Positions 4,530-19,049 of a stretch of DNA of 64,000 nt are shown here, one piece after another. The stretch is from positions 4,740-68,739 of the IMG/VR virus record IMGVR_UViG_3300002542_000006, one strand, 5' to 3'. The translations under genes were made by a program, and so were the position numbers. Under the pieces are notes generated by a model that did not search any database, had not been told where the DNA came from, and saw nothing but the letters and a program-made list of their open reading frames with translations. The stretch's first letter is position 1, and every line of letters begins with the position of its first letter. Origin of the DNA: a virus.

Positions 4530-5414
4530 ATGATGAAAAATATGTTTACCACCAAAACAAAAAAAGAGTTTCCTATCTACTATATAGTAGAAGCAGCAAT
4601 CAACCCAGACGACATAAAGACTGAGATTATAAGAGAAAATGTAGTAGATACGGCAGATGGGAAGAAAGTGAAGACTGTTACTGCCGAATCTGTTCTTCAA
4701 AGCTTCGAAAGAATTAATTGGAATGGTCGTAGTTATCCTGGAAATATTGTTATGAGAAGTCTTAATGAAGACCCGAAAATTCAAAACGATATTCGTATGA
4801 GACAATGGGCAGGGGAATGGTGCCATCCGGACAGCACAAGCCCCGTTCGTCAATCTCAAGTTCTTGATCCTTTCGTGTCTCATTATATTGATAAGTATTG
4901 GCAGGATGGAAACCTTCTTAAGGCACATGTAACCACGGCACCTTTTGGCTACGGTTTGGATATGTATAACAAACTTATGGCAGGTCGTCCATGGGGCTTC
5001 TCTCTCCGGGCATTTGGGGCTACTGATTCAAACAATGTAGCTATTTGGCCTCTTAGAATTATCACCTATGACCAGGTAAACAGACCTTCACATAAAGAGG
5101 CATATTCTACAAGACAAAACGTCATTTCTAAAAACGAATACACTGATGATTTCTTACAGGAATGTTCGGTTATGTATCCCGTAGATCAATCTACTCTACA
5201 AAAAGAAATTACAAACTTCGTTCTTGAAAAATCCGATAATGTAAAGATCGCTAAAGAATTGTTTGGTCTCCAAGAATCTCAAGGAGAGTTTAATGATAAA
5301 GGCCAAGTAATGCTTGAAGGATCTTATCTTGGTACTACTATTAGAGTATATCTTCCAGTGGAGTCATATATTCGAGAAAATTATATGAATATGCTCCGCA
5401 GTCTTAAGCAATAA
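4530..5414 (+). CDS. Prohead core protease (T4 gp21/phiKZ gp175 family)
   Basis: GEWCHP (cf. GELGHP) and WGFSLRAFG (cf. GVSSRG) catalytic His/Ser motifs; late promoter 4490-4501; start refined to the ATG after SD GAAAGGA. Confidence 0.85.
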   Translation: MMKNMFTTKTKKEFPIYYIVEAAINPDDIKTEIIRENVVDTADGKKVKTVTAESVLQSFERINWNGRSYPGNIVMRSLNEDPKIQNDIRMRQWAGEWCHPDSTSPVRQSQVLDPFVSHYIDKYWQDGNLLKAHVTTAPFGYGLDMYNKLMAGRPWGFSLRAFGATDSNNVAIWPLRIITYDQVNRPSHKEAYSTRQNVISKNEYTDDFLQECSVMYPVDQSTLQKEITNFVLEKSDNVKIAKELFGLQESQGEFNDKGQVMLEGSYLGTTIRVYLPVESYIRENYMNMLRSLKQ

Positions 5415-6439: not shown

Positions 6440-8348
6440 CGAACGGCCCTTCCTCATTTAGTTCTATTTTTATAAGCCCATTTTTGTTTCTCACATACGA
6501 CCCTGGGCTATAATCAGGTCTCGGTCTAGCTGTTATCCTGATAAGATGGAAGTTCCTCTTAATTACAATAAACCCTTTAGAATTACGCACATAAGCAGAC
6601 GAGTCCAAATTTCTTTGAACTTTTATCAGTCCACTAGATGTACGCACATACTCTGGTTTGACAATTTGAATGTAACCTTCATCATTCCTAAAATCTCTAT
6701 ACTTCAGATTGAACTTACGTTTATCATGTTCTTCTCTAATTGCCTTATAGTGAGCTTGTATCATTCCATAATACTGCTCATTTTCTTTAATTTGCTTAAT
6801 ACGTTTTCTGAGTCTCTTAGCATATGGTCTTTCAATAGACTCAGAATCCCCGAAATATCCGCCATCATAGATCTTACAGAACGGTGTTAACATACCAGAA
6901 ATTCCAGGTGAGCTCGATGAAATAGCATTAAGCTCAAATCTTCCAAGATAGCTAGGATAAATATCTCGTTGTTCATCCTTAACCTTATCAGAGGGTAGAC
7001 CCTGAATCCCTGTGAATGAAAACTTCAAGCCATTTAGCGCTTGAAGATCATTGATATCAATATTGTAACGGAATAGAGGAGAAGGTTTCCTCCCTCTGAA
7101 TAGTGACTTTATCAAAATGTGCTCATCAAATTTGAAGATTCTAGAAAGTTTTTCTTTGTCATACGGCCTCAAATTGAGGGCATAATTGACCTTATCTTTC
7201 AAGAATCTACTAAAATGAGCAGCAATATATTCATTGGTCCTTATTCTCTTATTGAGAAGAGAATTATTATCCATATTTCTCAGTTCGTTAAACTCCCTCA
7301 TCATCCAACGCAATACACAATAGATATCTGCTTTATCTTTATAGTCTATTCTCAGAGAATTCTGAGTTGCAGAATCAAGAACATTTCTAAATGATTTTAG
7401 TACATCATATCCTTTATTCAACTGATTTTTTGCAGCGGACGTGAAAAGAGAACCAAGCCTCTTTACCCATAACTCATTATCATAGATATCCTCAATTTTA
7501 TTTCTAGTATTGAAGATCTGGATAAGCATTCCGGTAAATGATCTAAAGAACGCATCATCTTCAAATAAAGTCTTTTCCGCTTCTAGAAGTATATTCGAGT
7601 TTACTTTGAAGTAATAGAATAGTTCAGGGTTTTTCACTTCAGTCACTACGTTTAGAAACTTATCATAACCAAAGAACTCGATTGTTCCCAATATTCCCTT
7701 TTTAGCAGCAAAATAGAAAATAGGATTGAATTTCTTTTTGAATAAATTTACCACGAGATTACTAATCCTAAATTCTTTACCGGAATCTACACATATAAGA
7801 ATAAATCTTTTACGCTTATCTTCTCTACTAAGTCTGAGTTGAATTCTTGACTTTAGAATCACCTCACCTTTCCGGTTATAGGTAGCATTATCAACTACCT
7901 GGAACATGGCAAGAGTCTTGTTTCCGGAAATCATGAAGTGATATCTATCTATATATTTTGGAAGAAGGATAGTATTTTCAACTTTTTCGCCACCGACAAT
8001 ATCTACAGTAAATTTTATAGCATCATAGATATCCGGTTGAACCGGAATGAGTTTTTCAATTCTATTCTTAATAATCTTCCTATTCTTGATATTCCTCAAA
8101 TTCAGACGAATATCAAGTTTTGAAGGATCTCGAATATATTCAACATCTCTTACAAAGATATCAGGAAGCATTTCGATAGATTTCAGATCTTCAGCAATAA
8201 ACTCCCAGATTTGTTTCCCTTTTCTTCTATCAAAGAGATCTTCATTGACACCAGCTTCAGTGGCCATTCTGTCTGACATCATTGCGACCATTTGGCTCAC
8301 ATAGTTTTTCGCCAATCCTATCTTCCTTCCTTTCCGCTTATAGTACAC
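6426..8348 (-). CDS. RNA polymerase beta-like subunit, N-terminal half (probably non-virion RNAP)
   Basis: 640 aa; RDIYPSYLGRFELNAISSSSPGISGMLTPF matches the beta region RDVHxSHYGRxCPIETPEGPNIGLI; C-terminal repeat tail. Confidence 0.8.
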   Translation of the reverse strand: MYYKRKGRKIGLAKNYVSQMVAMMSDRMATEAGVNEDLFDRRKGKQIWEFIAEDLKSIEMLPDIFVRDVEYIRDPSKLDIRLNLRNIKNRKIIKNRIEKLIPVQPDIYDAIKFTVDIVGGEKVENTILLPKYIDRYHFMISGNKTLAMFQVVDNATYNRKGEVILKSRIQLRLSREDKRKRFILICVDSGKEFRISNLVVNLFKKKFNPIFYFAAKKGILGTIEFFGYDKFLNVVTEVKNPELFYYFKVNSNILLEAEKTLFEDDAFFRSFTGMLIQIFNTRNKIEDIYDNELWVKRLGSLFTSAAKNQLNKGYDVLKSFRNVLDSATQNSLRIDYKDKADIYCVLRWMMREFNELRNMDNNSLLNKRIRTNEYIAAHFSRFLKDKVNYALNLRPYDKEKLSRIFKFDEHILIKSLFRGRKPSPLFRYNIDINDLQALNGLKFSFTGIQGLPSDKVKDEQRDIYPSYLGRFELNAISSSSPGISGMLTPFCKIYDGGYFGDSESIERPYAKRLRKRIKQIKENEQYYGMIQAHYKAIREEHDKRKFNLKYRDFRNDEGYIQIVKPEYVRTSSGLIKVQRNLDSSAYVRNSKGFIVIKRNFHLIRITARPRPDYSPGSYVRNKNGLIKIELNEEGPFGGKK

Positions 8349-12070: not shown

Positions 12071-14158
12071 TTATCGTCTCAGTTTATCCCATCCATCAAA
12101 GAATATTTTTATAGATTTCTTATCCATACTTTTAATTTCATCCAAAAGAATATCTCTAACCTCTTCATCAGATCCTCCATATTCAAACTCTAGGGCCATA
12201 CCACATACCATAAATGTAGCATTAAATAGATCAACTACCCTAGATTTTGGATTCTTCATCTCTATACGAAGATCTTCGGAGAAAATATTTGTATGAAGAA
12301 GTTGAGAAAATTCACGCCTTCCAGTTACAGAAGTACAATAAAGTCTTGTAAAGAAATTGATGGCCGCAGGATCGTTACAGAGATTCAAGATATCCATCTC
12401 CATATTACCAATCCTGATAGCTTGGTTATTAAACAATGCTGTACCTCTGCTATATGCATGAGATTTAATAGGCAAAAATGTTCTAGGATTAATTGTACCT
12501 TTAGATCTTACAGAGAATTTCGTTATTGGCTCATGTTTAAGTCTGTAGATATACGTATCAGACATAATCATCTTACGTTGAATATTATAAACCCCTCCGG
12601 ATTTATCCATAAACGTAAACCTTTTCTTCTTAGGTTCAAATCTCTCTATAAGTTTTGAATAGTTCTTAAAGCTAATAGACATACTTGGGGGTTGGAATAT
12701 AACAAATTCTTTAGTAATTTGTGATAGGAATTCTTCCTTCTCCTCTTTATCGAGGGATTTATAGAACTCCCTTACCATTTTTTCTTGGTCGGGGTTACAT
12801 ATCGACAAGAAATCCAGAAGTGCTTCGAATTTCTTTTTCTTAGGAGCATCCCCTTCCAGAATCTGATCCACAATCCAGTTCAATTCAAGTTCATATAGCT
12901 GAGATGGATTCAGACGTCCAATGACGCTCAGAGCACTAAAGATGACTTCTACATATTCACCATCTTCACTTCTTGGCATGTATTTTTCTGGAACTATCTC
13001 GGAAACAACACCTTTATTCCCATGGCGTCCAACAAGTTTTGTTCCGACTACAGCCTTTTTCTCATTAACTACAGTTATATAGATGATTATGTCATCAAAA
13101 ATCGATCCATCATCATCCCACTTGACATGCTTCCCGATGCTCATCACATCTTTAGCGCGAGAATATGTTATACCAATTTGATCCGAATATTCATTTTCCG
13201 GGTTCCCAACAATTTCTTCAAGTGTTTCTTTAAGCTCGCGCCAATAATTGTTAATCAACTTCATATATTTCAAAATTTGGTGATTGACCTTATCAGTGGA
13301 AATTTCATCAATTGGTATATTAGAATAAATATCAATATCTACTACAGTTCCTTCTGCATAATATAGAGTATCACCAAACATCTCTTTTCTAAGATTTTTA
13401 CTTTTTAGCATATATTGTGCGTTATTATAATCAATTCTCCGTCTCCCACACAATACTTTATTTCTAACTTCCTCTCCAATATCCGGAAATGCCTTATAGA
13501 CTTCACTATTTCCGTAAAGATTGAGTAGGATATCGTTAGTATTCTTTGGGATCTTGTAAGTATTTACGTTCGTGACTTTCAATCTTTTTGCAAGTTTGTC
13601 AGAAATCCTGAATGCGTCCTCAACAATTGCTGGATCTACCATATATACGGTCTTTGCATTTATACCTAAGCGATAGTTCATATTATCATCATAGGAGCGG
13701 GATCTGTATAGGATCTCCCCCGATTTTACTTTATCTCCAACTTTCTTAGAATCAATAATTTTATTATTCATTTTTACACCAGTTGCTTCTGCAAAAGCTT
13801 CAACTTCATTCCTAAATACAATATCGTAATAATTTTTGCCAGCTTCTTTAAGAATCAAAGCATAAACAAAATCATTGTCAAATTTTCTAATCTTCTTTAC
13901 AACTTCAAAATTTTTATCAGATCTATAGTAGGAAGTCGACCTATCTCCAAACAATTTCTCATATCCAGTCACGATTCTCGGAATTTCCGGATTTTCAAGA
14001 TTTTTAGATTGTGCAATCTGTTGGAAGATCAGAGCCGCCCGAGAAGAGTTTACTTTATTCCCAATCGGTATAAATAAACCGCTTCCGAGAGCGTGGTCAA
14101 TATTTTTAATCTCACTAGCTATTCTATCAAGTTCTTCCATTTGTTCTGGTTGTAACAT
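12071..14158 (-). CDS. RNA polymerase beta-like subunit, C-terminal half (probably non-virion RNAP)
   Basis: GTKLVGRHGNKGVVS, YRLKHEP and RIGNMEMD are hallmark beta-subunit motifs. Confidence 0.92.
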   Translation of the reverse strand: MLQPEQMEELDRIASEIKNIDHALGSGLFIPIGNKVNSSRAALIFQQIAQSKNLENPEIPRIVTGYEKLFGDRSTSYYRSDKNFEVVKKIRKFDNDFVYALILKEAGKNYYDIVFRNEVEAFAEATGVKMNNKIIDSKKVGDKVKSGEILYRSRSYDDNMNYRLGINAKTVYMVDPAIVEDAFRISDKLAKRLKVTNVNTYKIPKNTNDILLNLYGNSEVYKAFPDIGEEVRNKVLCGRRRIDYNNAQYMLKSKNLRKEMFGDTLYYAEGTVVDIDIYSNIPIDEISTDKVNHQILKYMKLINNYWRELKETLEEIVGNPENEYSDQIGITYSRAKDVMSIGKHVKWDDDGSIFDDIIIYITVVNEKKAVVGTKLVGRHGNKGVVSEIVPEKYMPRSEDGEYVEVIFSALSVIGRLNPSQLYELELNWIVDQILEGDAPKKKKFEALLDFLSICNPDQEKMVREFYKSLDKEEKEEFLSQITKEFVIFQPPSMSISFKNYSKLIERFEPKKKRFTFMDKSGGVYNIQRKMIMSDTYIYRLKHEPITKFSVRSKGTINPRTFLPIKSHAYSRGTALFNNQAIRIGNMEMDILNLCNDPAAINFFTRLYCTSVTGRREFSQLLHTNIFSEDLRIEMKNPKSRVVDLFNATFMVCGMALEFEYGGSDEEVRDILLDEIKSMDKKSIKIFFDGWDKLRR

Positions 14159-14177: not shown

Positions 14178-14582
14178 TTATTTTAATATATAAATTTTAG
14201 CTATTTTTTCATCCCTTATGTCAATTAATATTTTTATTATTCTAATAATAGAACCTTCAGTCGTGTCATCAAATTTCTTTTCAGCTTTTCTTTGTTTCTG
14301 AATCAGATCAAAGAGACCCAATAATCTAAAATTTTTTAACTCAATTACAATATTATGATTTTGAGTTTTAAATCGTTCAAGTAGATTTAAATAAATCATG
14401 TTAAGATCTTTGGCGTCTATAATCATAGACTCACTATCTTCTAATTTTTGAAGTTTATAGCCACTCAAATAAACCTCATTAACAATTTGAATACAGCTAA
14501 GGAGCGGTAATTTATAATTAGACTTTTCTTGCAAATAACTAACATCGTTAGTAACACTATCAATTCTAATTCTAAATGACAT
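14178..14582 (-). CDS. Early hypothetical protein (134 aa) carrying a copy of the RecA N-terminal peptide
   Basis: ATG at 14582 after GGAGG; contains LGLFDLIQKQRKAEKKFDDT. Confidence 0.65.
   Translation of the reverse strand: MSFRIRIDSVTNDVSYLQEKSNYKLPLLSCIQIVNEVYLSGYKLQKLEDSESMIIDAKDLNMIYLNLLERFKTQNHNIVIELKNFRLLGLFDLIQKQRKAEKKFDDTTEGSIIRIIKILIDIRDEKIAKIYILK
14262..14323. repeat. 62-bp direct repeat, copy 1 (inside the 134-aa ORF)
   Basis: 61/62 identical to 15956-16017. Confidence 0.95.
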
Positions 14583-14662
14583 GAATAGACCTCCTAGCAA
14601 TAATAATAGGTGGATAGGAATTTATCCTATCCACACTAATAATATATATTTTTGTCGGAAAT

Positions 14663-16024
14663 TTAATAATTTTTAAACCAATATTTCTTTCTATTGAAGT
14701 CTGAATTTCCTTTAAGGAAATCCGTCCACCCTTGATTTTTGTAGAATTCAATATCCTTCTCATGTTCCTCAAGAGCCAAATACATTGAATCCAGTTTTTG
14801 AGTTTCACTTTCCGCGCCCCCCAACCGTCCAGTATCAGTTGAGAGCATTGCTTCAAGATGAGGCTTACATGCTTCATATAAAGCCTCGAGAATTTCAGGA
14901 GATTTCATTACTACATCTTTAAATGTTTTCTTAGTAAATTTCACGCTTTCTAGACCTGGTAAATAATGAGCTCGGTTGTTTCCCAAGAGAACTCCATTTC
15001 TCACTGCAAAATTAAATAGCGTTAAAGTCTTTGAAAAGCCACCCTTACGGTGATCAAACACAAGCTCAATAGGAATATTTGAGGCATTTGTGCGGGATTT
15101 AATATATTTTGCCTCTACAAGAAACCCAGGAATTCCGTATTCCATAGTATCAGGTTTGTCAGCCAAATACTTCTTAATGAGTCTAAGCTTAATAATATTA
15201 TTAGCAAGATAAAGAGATGCCATACCACCAGGCATAGATTCACCTTGAGAAAGATACATGTGTTGATTCGCCTTGGGTAAAAATCCTGTATTAACATCTT
15301 GGTTAATATGATTTACCGCAATAATTCCAACATTGGCCTTCTTACCGTAAGCCAACATTTGAGTCAATATAGCTTTATTGAACTTTGCGGATGTTGCAGC
15401 TTGCATATTGTTAGTAACATCTTCAATTTTTTTGGTTGCGATGTCAATTTCTCTACTCTTAAACATTGCAAATGAGTCTATAAGAGCGAATGAGGGATAG
15501 AGCTCCTCAATCTCTTCTCCATAAATATCATAAATTCCCGTCTTATAAGTAAACATTTTTCTATTATTAAGTTTTATATCACAGTGAGTCTTAAAAATGT
15601 CTACCACATCTTCTGCCCCTCTATCGCGATAAATCTCATATGTTTTTCTGATAATAGAGGGCTTCAATCTAGTAATAGTCAACGGGCGCTGGATAGTAGA
15701 TGCCAGCTCAAGATCAAAATGAGTTACCGCAGACATTTCACCAAATTTATGAATTCCAGAGACTGCAAGATCAATCGCAAGAGCTGTTTTACCTGTACCA
15801 GAAATTCCTATAACAGTAGCAAATGTTCCACCTACAATTCCAATTGAATCGGTTCTGGCAATAGGTCTATCATTTTCATCATATGATGTGATACGAATAC
15901 CATTAGCATAATCCAACGGAAGATGACCCGAGGGATAACTTATTTCAGTGACAACCGTGTCATCAAATTTCTTTTCAGCTTTTCTTTGTTTCTGAATCAG
16001 ATCAAGGAGACCCAATATTATCAT
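14663..16024 (-). CDS. recA: RecA/UvsX-like recombinase
   Basis: YPSGHLPLDYANG (cf. ISTGSLSLDIALG), Walker A GISGTGKT, Walker B LIDSF, AVNHI, PGG motif. Confidence 0.88.
   Translation of the reverse strand: MIILGLLDLIQKQRKAEKKFDDTVVTEISYPSGHLPLDYANGIRITSYDENDRPIARTDSIGIVGGTFATVIGISGTGKTALAIDLAVSGIHKFGEMSAVTHFDLELASTIQRPLTITRLKPSIIRKTYEIYRDRGAEDVVDIFKTHCDIKLNNRKMFTYKTGIYDIYGEEIEELYPSFALIDSFAMFKSREIDIATKKIEDVTNNMQAATSAKFNKAILTQMLAYGKKANVGIIAVNHINQDVNTGFLPKANQHMYLSQGESMPGGMASLYLANNIIKLRLIKKYLADKPDTMEYGIPGFLVEAKYIKSRTNASNIPIELVFDHRKGGFSKTLTLFNFAVRNGVLLGNNRAHYLPGLESVKFTKKTFKDVVMKSPEILEALYEACKPHLEAMLSTDTGRLGGAESETQKLDSMYLALEEHEKDIEFYKNQGWTDFLKGNSDFNRKKYWFKNY
15956..16017. repeat. 62-bp direct repeat, copy 2 (5' end of recA)
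   Basis: 61/62 identical to 14262-14323. Confidence 0.95.
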
Positions 16025-16072
16025 CCTCTCTATACATCGGTATCTAATTGCGTGTTCGAAATGAAATAAATA

Positions 16073-16110
16073 AATAAGAGAGATAGGAGAAAACTCCTAT
16101 CTCTCTTATT
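16073..16110 (-). terminator. Intrinsic terminator
   Basis: 17-bp perfect stem with AAAA loop, A/T flanks. Confidence 0.75.
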
Positions 16111-16121
16111 TATTACTACTC

Positions 16122-16811
16122 TTAAGTTTTAGGGTTCACACATACAGTGGATAAATCAAATTTAGGAATCTCTAATCTCCTGGCAGAAATTTTTTCTACC
16201 TTTTCATGAAAAGTTTCAATAGTAAAATATTCTACATTATTTTGCCTAAAACGTGCTTTAGGTTGTTTCATACCCTCTACAATTGTATTATAATTGGCAA
16301 ATACGATTCTTTCAACTTGAACAACTTTGCCGCCGTTAAATCCGTATCGAATTTCAATACCGAAATCTTTATTGTTATCAACGTCAATAGCTGCGATAGT
16401 AACTCTTGTTCTAAAGTCTTTATTGGTTATAAAACTAGAAATCGCTTTCATATTTATAAAATTGATATCCGTAATCACTTCACCATTTTTAGTTTCATAG
16501 TTAAACATAAGAATATTTCTATCTTCACTTTTATCTTGAGCAGCTGTTATTACTGGCAGATATCTATCAGGATCAAGTTGAACCGAGTACAGCTTAGTAA
16601 ACTGATTTATATTTGGGAAAACTCTTCCCGCTTCTACGACTGTAAGATCCTCATATTTATTTTTATCAATAGCGAGAAAAACCCCTCTATCCACCCCAGA
16701 GAGGGAAATTGAGTGGCTTTTTCTTTTTGGGTTTTTATCATTAGTCTTGGTAAATACTTCCCAACCTTCAATAACACTATCTTCCGGCACATGGTTATAT
16801 AATCTTATCAT
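16122..16811 (-). CDS. Hypothetical protein
   Basis: 229-aa ORF, SD AAAGGA, AACC-N6-TA upstream. Confidence 0.7.
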   Translation of the reverse strand: MIRLYNHVPEDSVIEGWEVFTKTNDKNPKRKSHSISLSGVDRGVFLAIDKNKYEDLTVVEAGRVFPNINQFTKLYSVQLDPDRYLPVITAAQDKSEDRNILMFNYETKNGEVITDINFINMKAISSFITNKDFRTRVTIAAIDVDNNKDFGIEIRYGFNGGKVVQVERIVFANYNTIVEGMKQPKARFRQNNVEYFTIETFHEKVEKISARRLEIPKFDLSTVCVNPKT

Positions 16812-16914
16812 AATTCACGGTTCCTTTCCCTTGGATTATTTTACCTATTTAGGGGTTAATTAAATAATAAAAAGAAAAAAATAATCGGAGGGAGCTTATT
16901 TCCCTCCGATTATC

Positions 16915-17838
16915 TCATATGTCAAGATAAACACGGTACATTTTATTCTTCTTAGCAAGTTTCTTCATAACCTTCCAAATTTTCTTATAGTCTTCTTTGT
17001 TAATAGTGGAGAGATTAATTCTTCTCCGGATATATTGTTCAAACTCAGATTTTCTTCTTTCATTGCAGTATAGTTTCAGAAGTTTCTTGATTTCATCTTT
17101 TTCTTGAATATTTATCTCATCCAAAGCTATTCTCGTTAATACAGAGTATAGCTCGGGATTTATCCAACTCGATTTTGAAAAATCTGGCTTTTTCTCAAGG
17201 AGGATATAAACCGCAACTTTGGGAATATCCTTCTTTCCATAAAGCTTGATAAGGAGTTTCCTCATACTTTTGTAGTCTTTAAACTTACAAACACTGTAGA
17301 TCATTTTCAGTGTGTTGTTCATAGTATGGCTAGGTGAGCCATGTGAAACAATACAGAGTTTCAATGCCTCGTTCCAGTCAATGCCATCAAGACCCAGATT
17401 GACAATCTTCTTGATTCGTCTCTCGTTGAGGTCTTCATAGATGCTTGAGTAAATGGAGATCATTTCTTTATACCTGTTTCTCCGAACTCGGCTAAGTTCA
17501 GACACAGCATTGGAGATGATCTCACTAAACTCTTCTCCATGTTTGATTATAAAATCATAATTCTTCCTAACGATCTTAGGAAGAATAGAAACGAACCCGA
17601 AATCTTGTGTCATGTTGAATATATAGTCAGGCCGTTTCCTATGACCGCGCTTCCATTCAATATAATCATTGAATAGAGTCTCAAGATGTTGCTGTACTGA
17701 AATCTCTATCACCTCCAACGGTTCACGTAAAAATGTTTTAGGAGATTCATAGAGTTTATCAAGTTTTTTAGCACGGGTCGACCTTTTGGCCGACCCGTTT
17801 TGCTCCCTATTTTGTACATTTCGAAATTTAATTTTCAT
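16915..17838 (-). CDS. Hypothetical basic helical protein, co-transcribed with tubulin
   Basis: 307-aa ORF starting 21 nt downstream of the tubulin stop. Confidence 0.7.
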   Translation of the reverse strand: MKIKFRNVQNREQNGSAKRSTRAKKLDKLYESPKTFLREPLEVIEISVQQHLETLFNDYIEWKRGHRKRPDYIFNMTQDFGFVSILPKIVRKNYDFIIKHGEEFSEIISNAVSELSRVRRNRYKEMISIYSSIYEDLNERRIKKIVNLGLDGIDWNEALKLCIVSHGSPSHTMNNTLKMIYSVCKFKDYKSMRKLLIKLYGKKDIPKVAVYILLEKKPDFSKSSWINPELYSVLTRIALDEINIQEKDEIKKLLKLYCNERRKSEFEQYIRRRINLSTINKEDYKKIWKVMKKLAKKNKMYRVYLDI

Positions 17839-17858: not shown

Positions 17859-19049
17859 TTAAAATGCATCAAACACAGAGGAACCTCTGCCGGTTCCGTC
17901 CGACTTCCCATCCCCAGCAAGTTTCAGCGGGGAATCAGATTCCCGTTCAATCACCGGGATTCTTTCTTTCTCTTTGGCATTTTCATATTCAGCAATCCGA
18001 CGCTCGATCATTTTGAATCGATCAATCGGAGCCGCCATTCCCGACATAATCATTGCAAATTCAGGCCCTTGACCACTGTTATTCTGAAGATGTCTGAATA
18101 CGAGGCCGCTTGTCGGGATACCAGCAATCGAATTCTGCACATCATCGAATGTGGTATCAATCAGATGATAAACTTCCGGATCTGTGTTCATAAAGAATCC
18201 ATAAGCATCCGGAGAATTGGTTGTTACAGCAGTGGAATTCTCAATTGCATTTTGAATTCGCCCAATGAGATCCACATTTTCTTCAGAGACACTGATATTA
18301 AGCTTCGGAATCGTGATAACCGACATCAACCCTTTGAAGGAAGTGAGTCGAGCATAGTCACGACCGTCAATATTGCTCCGAGAGTTCTCAATAAAGAATT
18401 CTTTGGAGAGAACCCGAATAGCAGTCACAACGTCATGATTGACTTTTTCATATACCTCATCTCCGACCTTATTCCGCACCCTGTTATTATCAAACAGGAG
18501 GTACGGGATATCCAATTTGTTTTCAAGATCAGACATGAACTCCCGCATATTCTTTTGCGAGACAAGGTCTTCCTTGATCGAGCCGAGAATTCCAATCATG
18601 AAGATCATCTTGTTTGGGTACTCGGTCTTCAAGTAGGCAGCGGTCATCGGAGAGATAATTGTTCCAGTACCTCCGCCGCCGGTTCCCACGATGAAGATAA
18701 GATCGTTCTTCATCAATTCTTTAATTCCATCATGTTCAAAGAATGACTTATAAGAGCGTTTGAATTCATTTGCCGAAAATGCGCGATCTTTACCAGACCC
18801 ATTCACATTTTCGATGGCGACTTTATGATCGACATTCAAATCGACCATGTCGGCTTGGGTTGTGTTGAATGCTGCCGTTGCATAACCATCGTAATAGCTC
18901 ATCAGATGAGCAATGTTGCCGCCACCGGCCCCGATTCCAATAACACTAGCAGTCATCTTCATTTTGTAATTCTCCTTTTTAGATTGAATTTTCGAAAGAT
19001 TTTCCTTTAAGGATTGAGTCAGAATTTGACCTGCTTCTTTTTTGGACAT
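17859..19049 (-). CDS. Tubulin/FtsZ-family GTPase (PhuZ/TubZ-like)
   Basis: GIGAGGGNIA, GSGKD, GTGGGGTGT signature, T7-loop-like NIDGRD; acidic/flexible C-terminal tail. Confidence 0.92.
   Translation of the reverse strand: MSKKEAGQILTQSLKENLSKIQSKKENYKMKMTASVIGIGAGGGNIAHLMSYYDGYATAAFNTTQADMVDLNVDHKVAIENVNGSGKDRAFSANEFKRSYKSFFEHDGIKELMKNDLIFIVGTGGGGTGTIISPMTAAYLKTEYPNKMIFMIGILGSIKEDLVSQKNMREFMSDLENKLDIPYLLFDNNRVRNKVGDEVYEKVNHDVVTAIRVLSKEFFIENSRSNIDGRDYARLTSFKGLMSVITIPKLNISVSEENVDLIGRIQNAIENSTAVTTNSPDAYGFFMNTDPEVYHLIDTTFDDVQNSIAGIPTSGLVFRHLQNNSGQGPEFAMIMSGMAAPIDRFKMIERRIAEYENAKEKERIPVIERESDSPLKLAGDGKSDGTGRGSSVFDAF

Follow-up and report, generated by a model that had tools for sequence, protein, structure and literature searches.

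The stretch of DNA analysed here, referred to as the window, comprises 64,000 nucleotides (nt) of the virus record IMGVR_UViG_3300002542_000006 (positions 4,740 to 68,739) and contains a gene for a UvsX/RecA-like recombinase, in the following recA, together with a small gene in which the 5' end of recA occurs a second time, almost unchanged and in frame. The source record is a 78.7-kb fragment of an uncultured jumbo phage and represents approximately 37% of a genome according to CheckV. Its nearest cultured relatives are the Bacillus phages AR9 and PBS1 and related Staphylococcus jumbo phages, with recombinase identities of approximately 32-35%. The features involved in the duplication are the following.

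14663-16024, minus strand: gene for the UvsX/RecA-like recombinase, assigned by its phrog_97 match, its match to the UvsX-like protein of AR9 and its predicted RecA fold.
15956-16017, minus strand: donor segment, consisting of the 2 nt before the probable TTG start and recA codons 1-20, delimited by the repeat, the comparison of start codons and the modelled helix.
14178-14582, minus strand: gene for a predicted early accessory protein of 134 amino acids (aa; 113 aa in the empty-site strain), belonging to a small, fast-evolving family.
14262-14324, minus strand: insertion of 63 nt (21 codons) in the small early gene, with boundaries taken from the empty-site allele.
14256-14261, minus strand: ACTGAA, a candidate junction microhomology native to the recipient gene and located directly 3' of the insert.

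The repeat search detected a direct repeat of 62 nt between 14262-14323 and 15956-16017 (spacing 1694 nt) with a single mismatch at 14312 versus 16006, as had been reported, with the same coordinates, in a preliminary description of this DNA. That the copy lies in frame inside the 134-aa open reading frame was likewise correctly described, both copies belonging to the minus strand and sharing the reading frame that gives (L)LGL[L/F]DLIQKQRKAEKKFDDT. Exactly two copies are present in the whole 78.7-kb record, and their exact core of 50 nt is the longest exact direct repeat of the window, while 30 first-order Markov simulations gave a chance level of 15-21 nt for such repeats. The mismatch is non-synonymous, with CTT (Leu) in recA and TTT (Phe) in the copy, and Phe occurs naturally at this position in the recombinases of two relatives (L007 and L038; relatives are designated here by L numbers). 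Among the 21 inserted residues, 20 are identical to the recombinase residues 1-20.

A homologue search with the 134-aa protein retrieved only two clusters, P0001, which is identical, and P0002, a protein of 113 aa. The latter reads ELKNF-G-TEGSIIR where the protein of the window reads ELKNF-R-(21 residues)-TEGSIIR, and differs from it in three other residues. It is encoded on L030, a Logan contig of 1356 nt from SRR28776671, which aligns to the window positions 15133-14325 (98.6%) and 14261-13718 (98.9%) and lacks exactly 14262-14324. Consequently, the event can be described as an insertion of 63 nt, or 21 codons, between two codons; the insert encodes residues 87-107 of the 134-aa protein, and 62 of its 63 nt (14262-14323) constitute the recA copy. 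The strain represented by L030 is approximately 98.7% identical overall, corresponding to approximately 1.2% difference outside the insert.

The survey of relatives covered the interval from recA to the polymerase gene in IMG/VR, JGI, ENA and Logan contigs whose recombinases range from 83% to approximately 28% identity. In none of the more than 20 related loci does the recombinase N-terminus occur a second time, whether as DNA or as peptide. The preliminary description had proposed to look for the same arrangement in relatives; the insert was missing from all those examined, including the near-identical strain. There is hence no sign of selection across relatives, as neither the 98.7%-identical strain nor any other family member or related locus carries the insert. 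Searches of IMG/VR for the exact junctions of the filled and the empty allele yielded nothing further, and a search for short recombinase N-terminal fragments that might polarise the Leu/Phe difference in the empty-site strain found none.

The recA N-terminus is retained in all recombinase relatives, and the segment is missing from the other members of the small-protein family, so that copying proceeded from recA into the small gene. Based on the empty-site allele the insertion is judged to be recent, with an age of at most approximately 1-2% divergence, and confined to one lineage. The preliminary description had considered a recent origin or gene conversion as causes of the near identity of both copies. 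A recent origin is supported by the empty site in the 98.7%-identical strain, and since youth explains the near identity, gene conversion need not be invoked. Alignments of three and five sequences, which displayed a degenerate RecA-like stretch in the L003 and L007 homologues, had hinted at an ancient graft renewed by gene conversion. This idea was dropped because the likeness vanished once ten sequences were aligned and the empty-site allele was available.

As the sequence is derived from a metagenome, the insert might be an assembly or chimera artefact that exists in no real phage genome. The filled allele, with the same mismatch, is however also present in ENA ERZ795070 NODE_223 (100.7 kb, 77x coverage; 100% identical over 6423 nt) and in ENA ERZ777003 NODE_28338 (2.7x; 100% identical over 1992 nt). 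Three assemblies of differing size and depth thus agree on it, which makes an assembler artefact unlikely. Furthermore, the 50-nt exact core of the repeat is shorter than an ordinary read, and assemblers do not favour an outcome of exactly 21 codons placed in frame between two codons. We regard an artefact as extremely improbable, and the agreement of the contigs indicates that the insert is a real mutation in the phage genome.

The donor gene encodes 453 aa if translation starts at the ATG at 16024 and 450 aa from the probable TTG start at 16015. Its product matches the UvsX-like recombinases of phrog_97 (E=2e-28, residues 8-407), shares 33% identity with the UvsX-like protein of AR9, contains the Walker A motif GISGTGKT and is matched in profile searches by the solved phage recombinases 7z3m and 9gbg and by RecA; a Pfam scan did not reach the RecA family itself. 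The AlphaFold2 model (mean predicted local distance difference test, pLDDT, 68.9) places a detached N-terminal helix (residues 6-16) and a short strand (29-30) ahead of the core. It superposes on E. coli RecA (7jy6_A) with Z 26.5 and a root-mean-square deviation of 3.7 A over 322 residues, model residues 1..397 corresponding to chain residues 5..333. According to this model the donor is a genuine RecA-fold recombinase, and by its position in the structural alignment the copied segment corresponds to RecA helix A. The phrog_97 match and the superposition from the N-terminus onward hence bear out the earlier proposal that the donor is the N-terminal interface helix region of RecA. In the E. coli protein, the protomers contact each other mainly through helix A (D3-F21) together with strand 0 (I26-R28) (PMC6237804). 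The copied block comprises the interface helix without the strand that follows it (TEISY). At its other end, the recombinase has a C-terminal extension past the RecA fold (residues ~400-453, window 14663-14860), modelled as a low-confidence helix at 407-430; its motif EFY..QGWTDF is retained in the close clade only and is missing from distant relatives.

Regarding the start of recA, a Shine-Dalgarno sequence (GAGAGGA) directly abuts the ATG at 16024 and the TTG follows 9 nt further on, a layout which is kept in close relatives (16013-16024, minus strand). The gene very probably starts at TTG 16015 and not at ATG 16024, because L011 has its upstream ATG in another frame, with an in-frame stop ahead of the TTG, and the recombinases of more distant relatives begin directly with M-G/S-L. 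With the TTG as start codon, the copy begins 2 nt before it and spans codons 1-20. The preliminary description, which had placed the copy in the codons after the residues MII, was therefore right about the first 20 codons, whereas its start codon very probably has to be moved.

The recipient protein belongs to no Pfam or PHROG family, its predicted fold has no Foldseek match at E<=0.001 in PDB or BFVD, and a feature search of the ESM Atlas returned only scores of 0.85 or lower. Its AlphaFold2 model (mean pLDDT 77.8; predicted template modelling score 0.68) consists of three helices (7-20, 27-39 and 57-73) and a three-stranded sheet (77-86, 112-122 and 125-133). The inserted residues 87-107 lie between strands 1 and 2 and are modelled as a short helix (90-98) followed by coil, with a pLDDT of 44-55. 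The insert is thus predicted as a flexible excursion from the turn of a beta-hairpin, the rest of the fold being kept with confidence, and this low-confidence excursion is consistent with solvent exposure of the insert.

In a profile search against 1.84 billion representatives, the small-protein family comprised only about ten true members, which are located between recA and the polymerase gene wherever their context is available. Compared with L030, non-synonymous and synonymous differences amount to 4:1 in the small gene, 2:4 in recA and 3:3 in the polymerase gene, these being small numbers; the values fit a fast-evolving accessory gene. The slot between recA and the polymerase gene is occupied in most relatives by one small gene of 113-137 aa, in L004 and L006 (both 7433-8108) by a tandem pair of diverged 113-aa paralogues, and in L038 and L013 by unrelated open reading frames of 148 aa and 202 aa, respectively. 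No gene is present in the slot of L012, L039 and L040. This distribution marks the slot as a hot spot for the turnover of accessory genes.

The surroundings of the two genes comprise the following further features.

12071-14158, minus strand: gene for the C-terminal part of the beta subunit of the non-virion RNA polymerase (nvRNAP), a split subunit, assigned by PF00562, phrog_3295 and synteny with AR9 g089.
14610-14634, minus strand: perfect stem-loop of 10 bp in the predicted 5' leader of the early transcript, recognised by comparison with relatives.
14639-14651, minus strand: early promoter motif of the AR9 type, identical in 12 of 13 positions to the annotated early promoter after the UvsX gene of AR9.
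16045-16056, minus strand: late-promoter-like motif AACA-N6-TA upstream of recA, kept in relatives as AACAC-N5-TA.
17859-19049, minus strand: gene for a PhuZ-type tubulin, assigned by Pfam and PHROG matches.

The early promoter motif is predicted to drive the small gene, which has a good Shine-Dalgarno sequence after the stem-loop, and the polymerase beta-C gene, which follows the small gene in the early transcription unit. Both the motif and the stem-loop are kept in relatives, even where the polymerase gene follows directly without a small gene. The comparison of the leader included L003, L004, L007, L011, L036, L012 and L013; the stem GTGGATAGGA/TCCTATCCAC is retained in the close relatives, and the more distant L012 and L013 have other, still complementary stems in its place. 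Stems that differ and yet remain complementary suggest that the polymerase beta-C transcription unit starts with a conserved element of RNA or DNA. The core of the early motif, ATATATTAT, is found in the window at 14 minus-strand sites and one plus-strand site, in agreement with gene orientation.

The AACA-N6-TA motif before recA presumably matches the published late-promoter consensus of AR9, and a terminator-like hairpin (16069-16114) is located upstream of recA. The assignment of an early promoter to the small gene and a late one to recA, made already in the preliminary description, appears reasonable, as it is supported by AR9-like motifs that are kept in relatives.

The gene order tubulin - 307 aa - 229 aa - recA - slot - polymerase beta-C - ligase is found throughout the clade. 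It includes two conserved proteins with no assigned function (229 aa and 307 aa) encoded at 16122-17838 on the minus strand, in the interval from tubulin to recA. Bacillus phage AR9 displays the corresponding order of UvsX-like g086, annotated early promoter, small hypothetical genes g087 and g088 and nvRNAP beta-C g089, with the early promoter at the equivalent position. It differs in that no copy of its own UvsX N-terminus is present at g087/g088, the products of which have no detectable similarity to the small protein of the window.

Taken together, we propose, with a probability of about 0.7, that the insert arose by a recent templated insertion guided by microhomology and that the small protein tolerates it. 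A 3' end in the small gene, broken or stalled, would have primed briefly on the 5' region of recA, situated 1.7 kb upstream on the same strand, and would then have returned to its original template in the course of break repair or replication restart. Short microhomologies may have guided both switches, namely GGA/GA at the left junction and ACTGAA at the right one. The sequence is TTTT GGA ACTGAA in the empty allele and TTTT AGA T (62 nt) ACTGAA in the filled allele, compared with GA GGA TGATAA (62 nt) GTTGTC ACTGAA in the donor. The GGA of the recipient thus equals the GGA in the Shine-Dalgarno sequence of recA, and ACTGAA recurs in recA at 15944-15949, 6 nt past the copied block; a hexamer of this kind is expected by chance within 12 nt of the block end with a probability of approximately 0.006. 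It is the recurrence of both GGA and ACTGAA around the donor block that points to a microhomology-guided templated insertion.

Only the native forward frame of the block is open, the other two containing stops. If the small gene is needed, so that only in-frame products survive, a surviving product must therefore spell the RecA peptide, and retention of the frame alone is no evidence for selection of the peptide. As the insert landed in the turn of a beta-hairpin, the fold of the recipient would be preserved. The present effect of the insertion would be tolerated or near-neutral, with the small protein carrying the RecA N-terminal helix as a floppy surface loop. The sequence comparisons provide no positive evidence for a present function of the insert.

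The insertion of a mobile element was considered as well and rejected, as there is no target-site duplication, no terminal repeat and no element gene, and the 63 nt are sequence of the genome that carries them. The same absence of target-site duplications, terminal repeats and mobile-element genes is shared with known templated insertions, as are the short, nearby template in the same orientation, the precise site and the candidate microhomologies near both junctions. The case described here differs from them in that its junctions lie 5-6 nt off the microhomologies and that a complete interaction helix was moved in frame. The literature searched contains no documented case of such a helix-transplanting insertion in AR9-like phages.

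Several observations weigh against the proposed templated and tolerated insertion. If the template had been switched precisely at GGA and ACTGAA, 74 nt containing an in-frame TGA would have been inserted, whereas the observed 63 nt are short of this by 5 nt at the left end and 6 nt (GTTGTC) at the right end and include a G-to-A change at the left edge. These offsets demand extra steps or a more complex event; a complex event or later trimming would account for the missing edge nucleotides. The copy has its 5' end at the start codon of recA and amounts to the whole N-terminal helix, and the filled allele is the consensus at 77x in one sample, all of which would fit selection of the peptide. In addition, the insert is known from assembled contigs alone, and the three assemblies may stem from related samples, their independence being unproven.

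Selection of the peptide would be expected if the insert acted as an interface mimic, i.e. if the early 134-aa protein docked its RecA-type helix on the core of the phage recombinase or on the host RecA, which we consider unlikely. With the same low probability, filaments would then be capped, slowed or tethered in the manner of a BRC repeat, either ahead of the accumulation of the late recombinase or during it, and the device would have arisen from a copy of its target's gene. A filament capper, loader or inhibitor had been one of the two possibilities named in the preliminary description. The insert does reproduce the recombinase's own oligomerisation peptide in 20 of 21 residues and includes the entire interface helix from codon 1, and its sole substitution, Leu to Phe, occurs naturally in the L007 and L038 recombinases. 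The match of the recombinase model to bacterial RecA (Z 26.5) starts at the N-terminus, where helix A and strand 0 constitute the major inter-protomer interface in E. coli (PMC6237804), and a peptide derived from the N-terminal helix is reported as a RecA inhibitor (Cline et al. 2007, listed in PMC7843400). Docking would also be favoured by the predicted position of the insert in an exposed flexible loop, by the early promoter of the small gene and the late promoter of recA, and by the status of the allele as consensus at 77x. Nevertheless, the insert is confined to a single lineage and is found neither in the 98.7%-identical strain nor in any other member of the family, and the graft lacks the following strand TEISY, which completes the RecA interface. 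The recipient family is furthermore tied to recombination by gene position only, it evolves fast, and the slot is often without it. Shuffled sequences have helical hydrophobic moments comparable to that of the peptide, so that no argument is made from amphipathicity. The more specific idea that the birth of a mimic is in progress here, the early protein having been newly given the recombinase interface helix and binding the recombinase core or host RecA, seems slightly less probable still.

Direct repeats of such length can recombine; here the two 62-nt copies have a spacing of 1694 nt, and the phage possesses a recombinase gene itself. The repeats might accordingly exist as a substrate for programmed deletion or amplification of the recA segment or for a fusion of recA with the small gene, as suggested in the preliminary description. 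A deletion would however remove the recombinase core, the early promoter at 14639-14651 and the 5' part of the small gene and leave polymerase beta-C behind the late promoter only, which is probably not viable. Taking furthermore into account that the repeat is found in no relative and that the homologues retrieved include no deletion-junction contig, a role as substrate seems very unlikely. Recombination between the copies is physically possible, but the repeat looks like a liability rather than a device, because a deletion would strip the essential nvRNAP beta-C gene of its early promoter. Even less probable is a function of the peptide as a shared address tag directing both proteins to one location, or as a decoy, made early, against a host defence that recognises the phage recombinase. 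A PhuZ-like tubulin is among the phage's gene products, and host and satellite systems directed at phage recombinases are known (PMC11846896), but nothing in the window marks the N-terminus as a signal or a sensed epitope and the occurrence in a single lineage argues against an established system.

With regard to known regulators, the BRC repeats of BRCA2 resemble the present case in that the recombinase's own subunit-subunit interface peptide is displayed by another protein. BRC repeats are old, conserved and proven binders which mimic the FxxA strand motif of RAD51, whereas the insert reproduces a RecA-type N-terminal helix almost exactly, is restricted to one strain and is a putative binder. 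Synthetic peptides of the RecA N-terminal helix (Cline, Holt and Singleton 2007, as cited in PMC7843400) likewise represent the helix region competing at the interface; they are designed, free peptides directed against E. coli RecA, in contrast to a natural graft in a loop that lacks the following beta-strand. RecX, DinI and PsiB are, as would apply to the 134-aa protein, small proteins proposed to act on RecA filaments, whereas the 134-aa protein belongs to no sequence family and has no significant match to solved folds. Templated insertion and mimicry of a recombinase interface, as in BRC repeats, are each already known. What is unusual is their combination, a near-exact, self-derived RecA-type helix in a loop of a neighbouring gene's product while the pre-insertion allele is still circulating.

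If the insert is a tolerated accident, it provides a clean and datable case with both the filled and the empty allele in hand, and it would illustrate that break repair in giant phages can shift a ready-made interaction peptide into a loop of another gene without destroying either gene. If it is indeed a mimic, it would represent a one-step route by which BRC-like regulators arise and a simple model for the origin of interface mimics. Provided that the helix binds, the 134-aa protein would be, to our knowledge, the first natural RecA-type regulator made from RecA's own N-terminal helix. The natural alleles of 113 aa and 134 aa form a matched pair, which makes the functional question directly testable.

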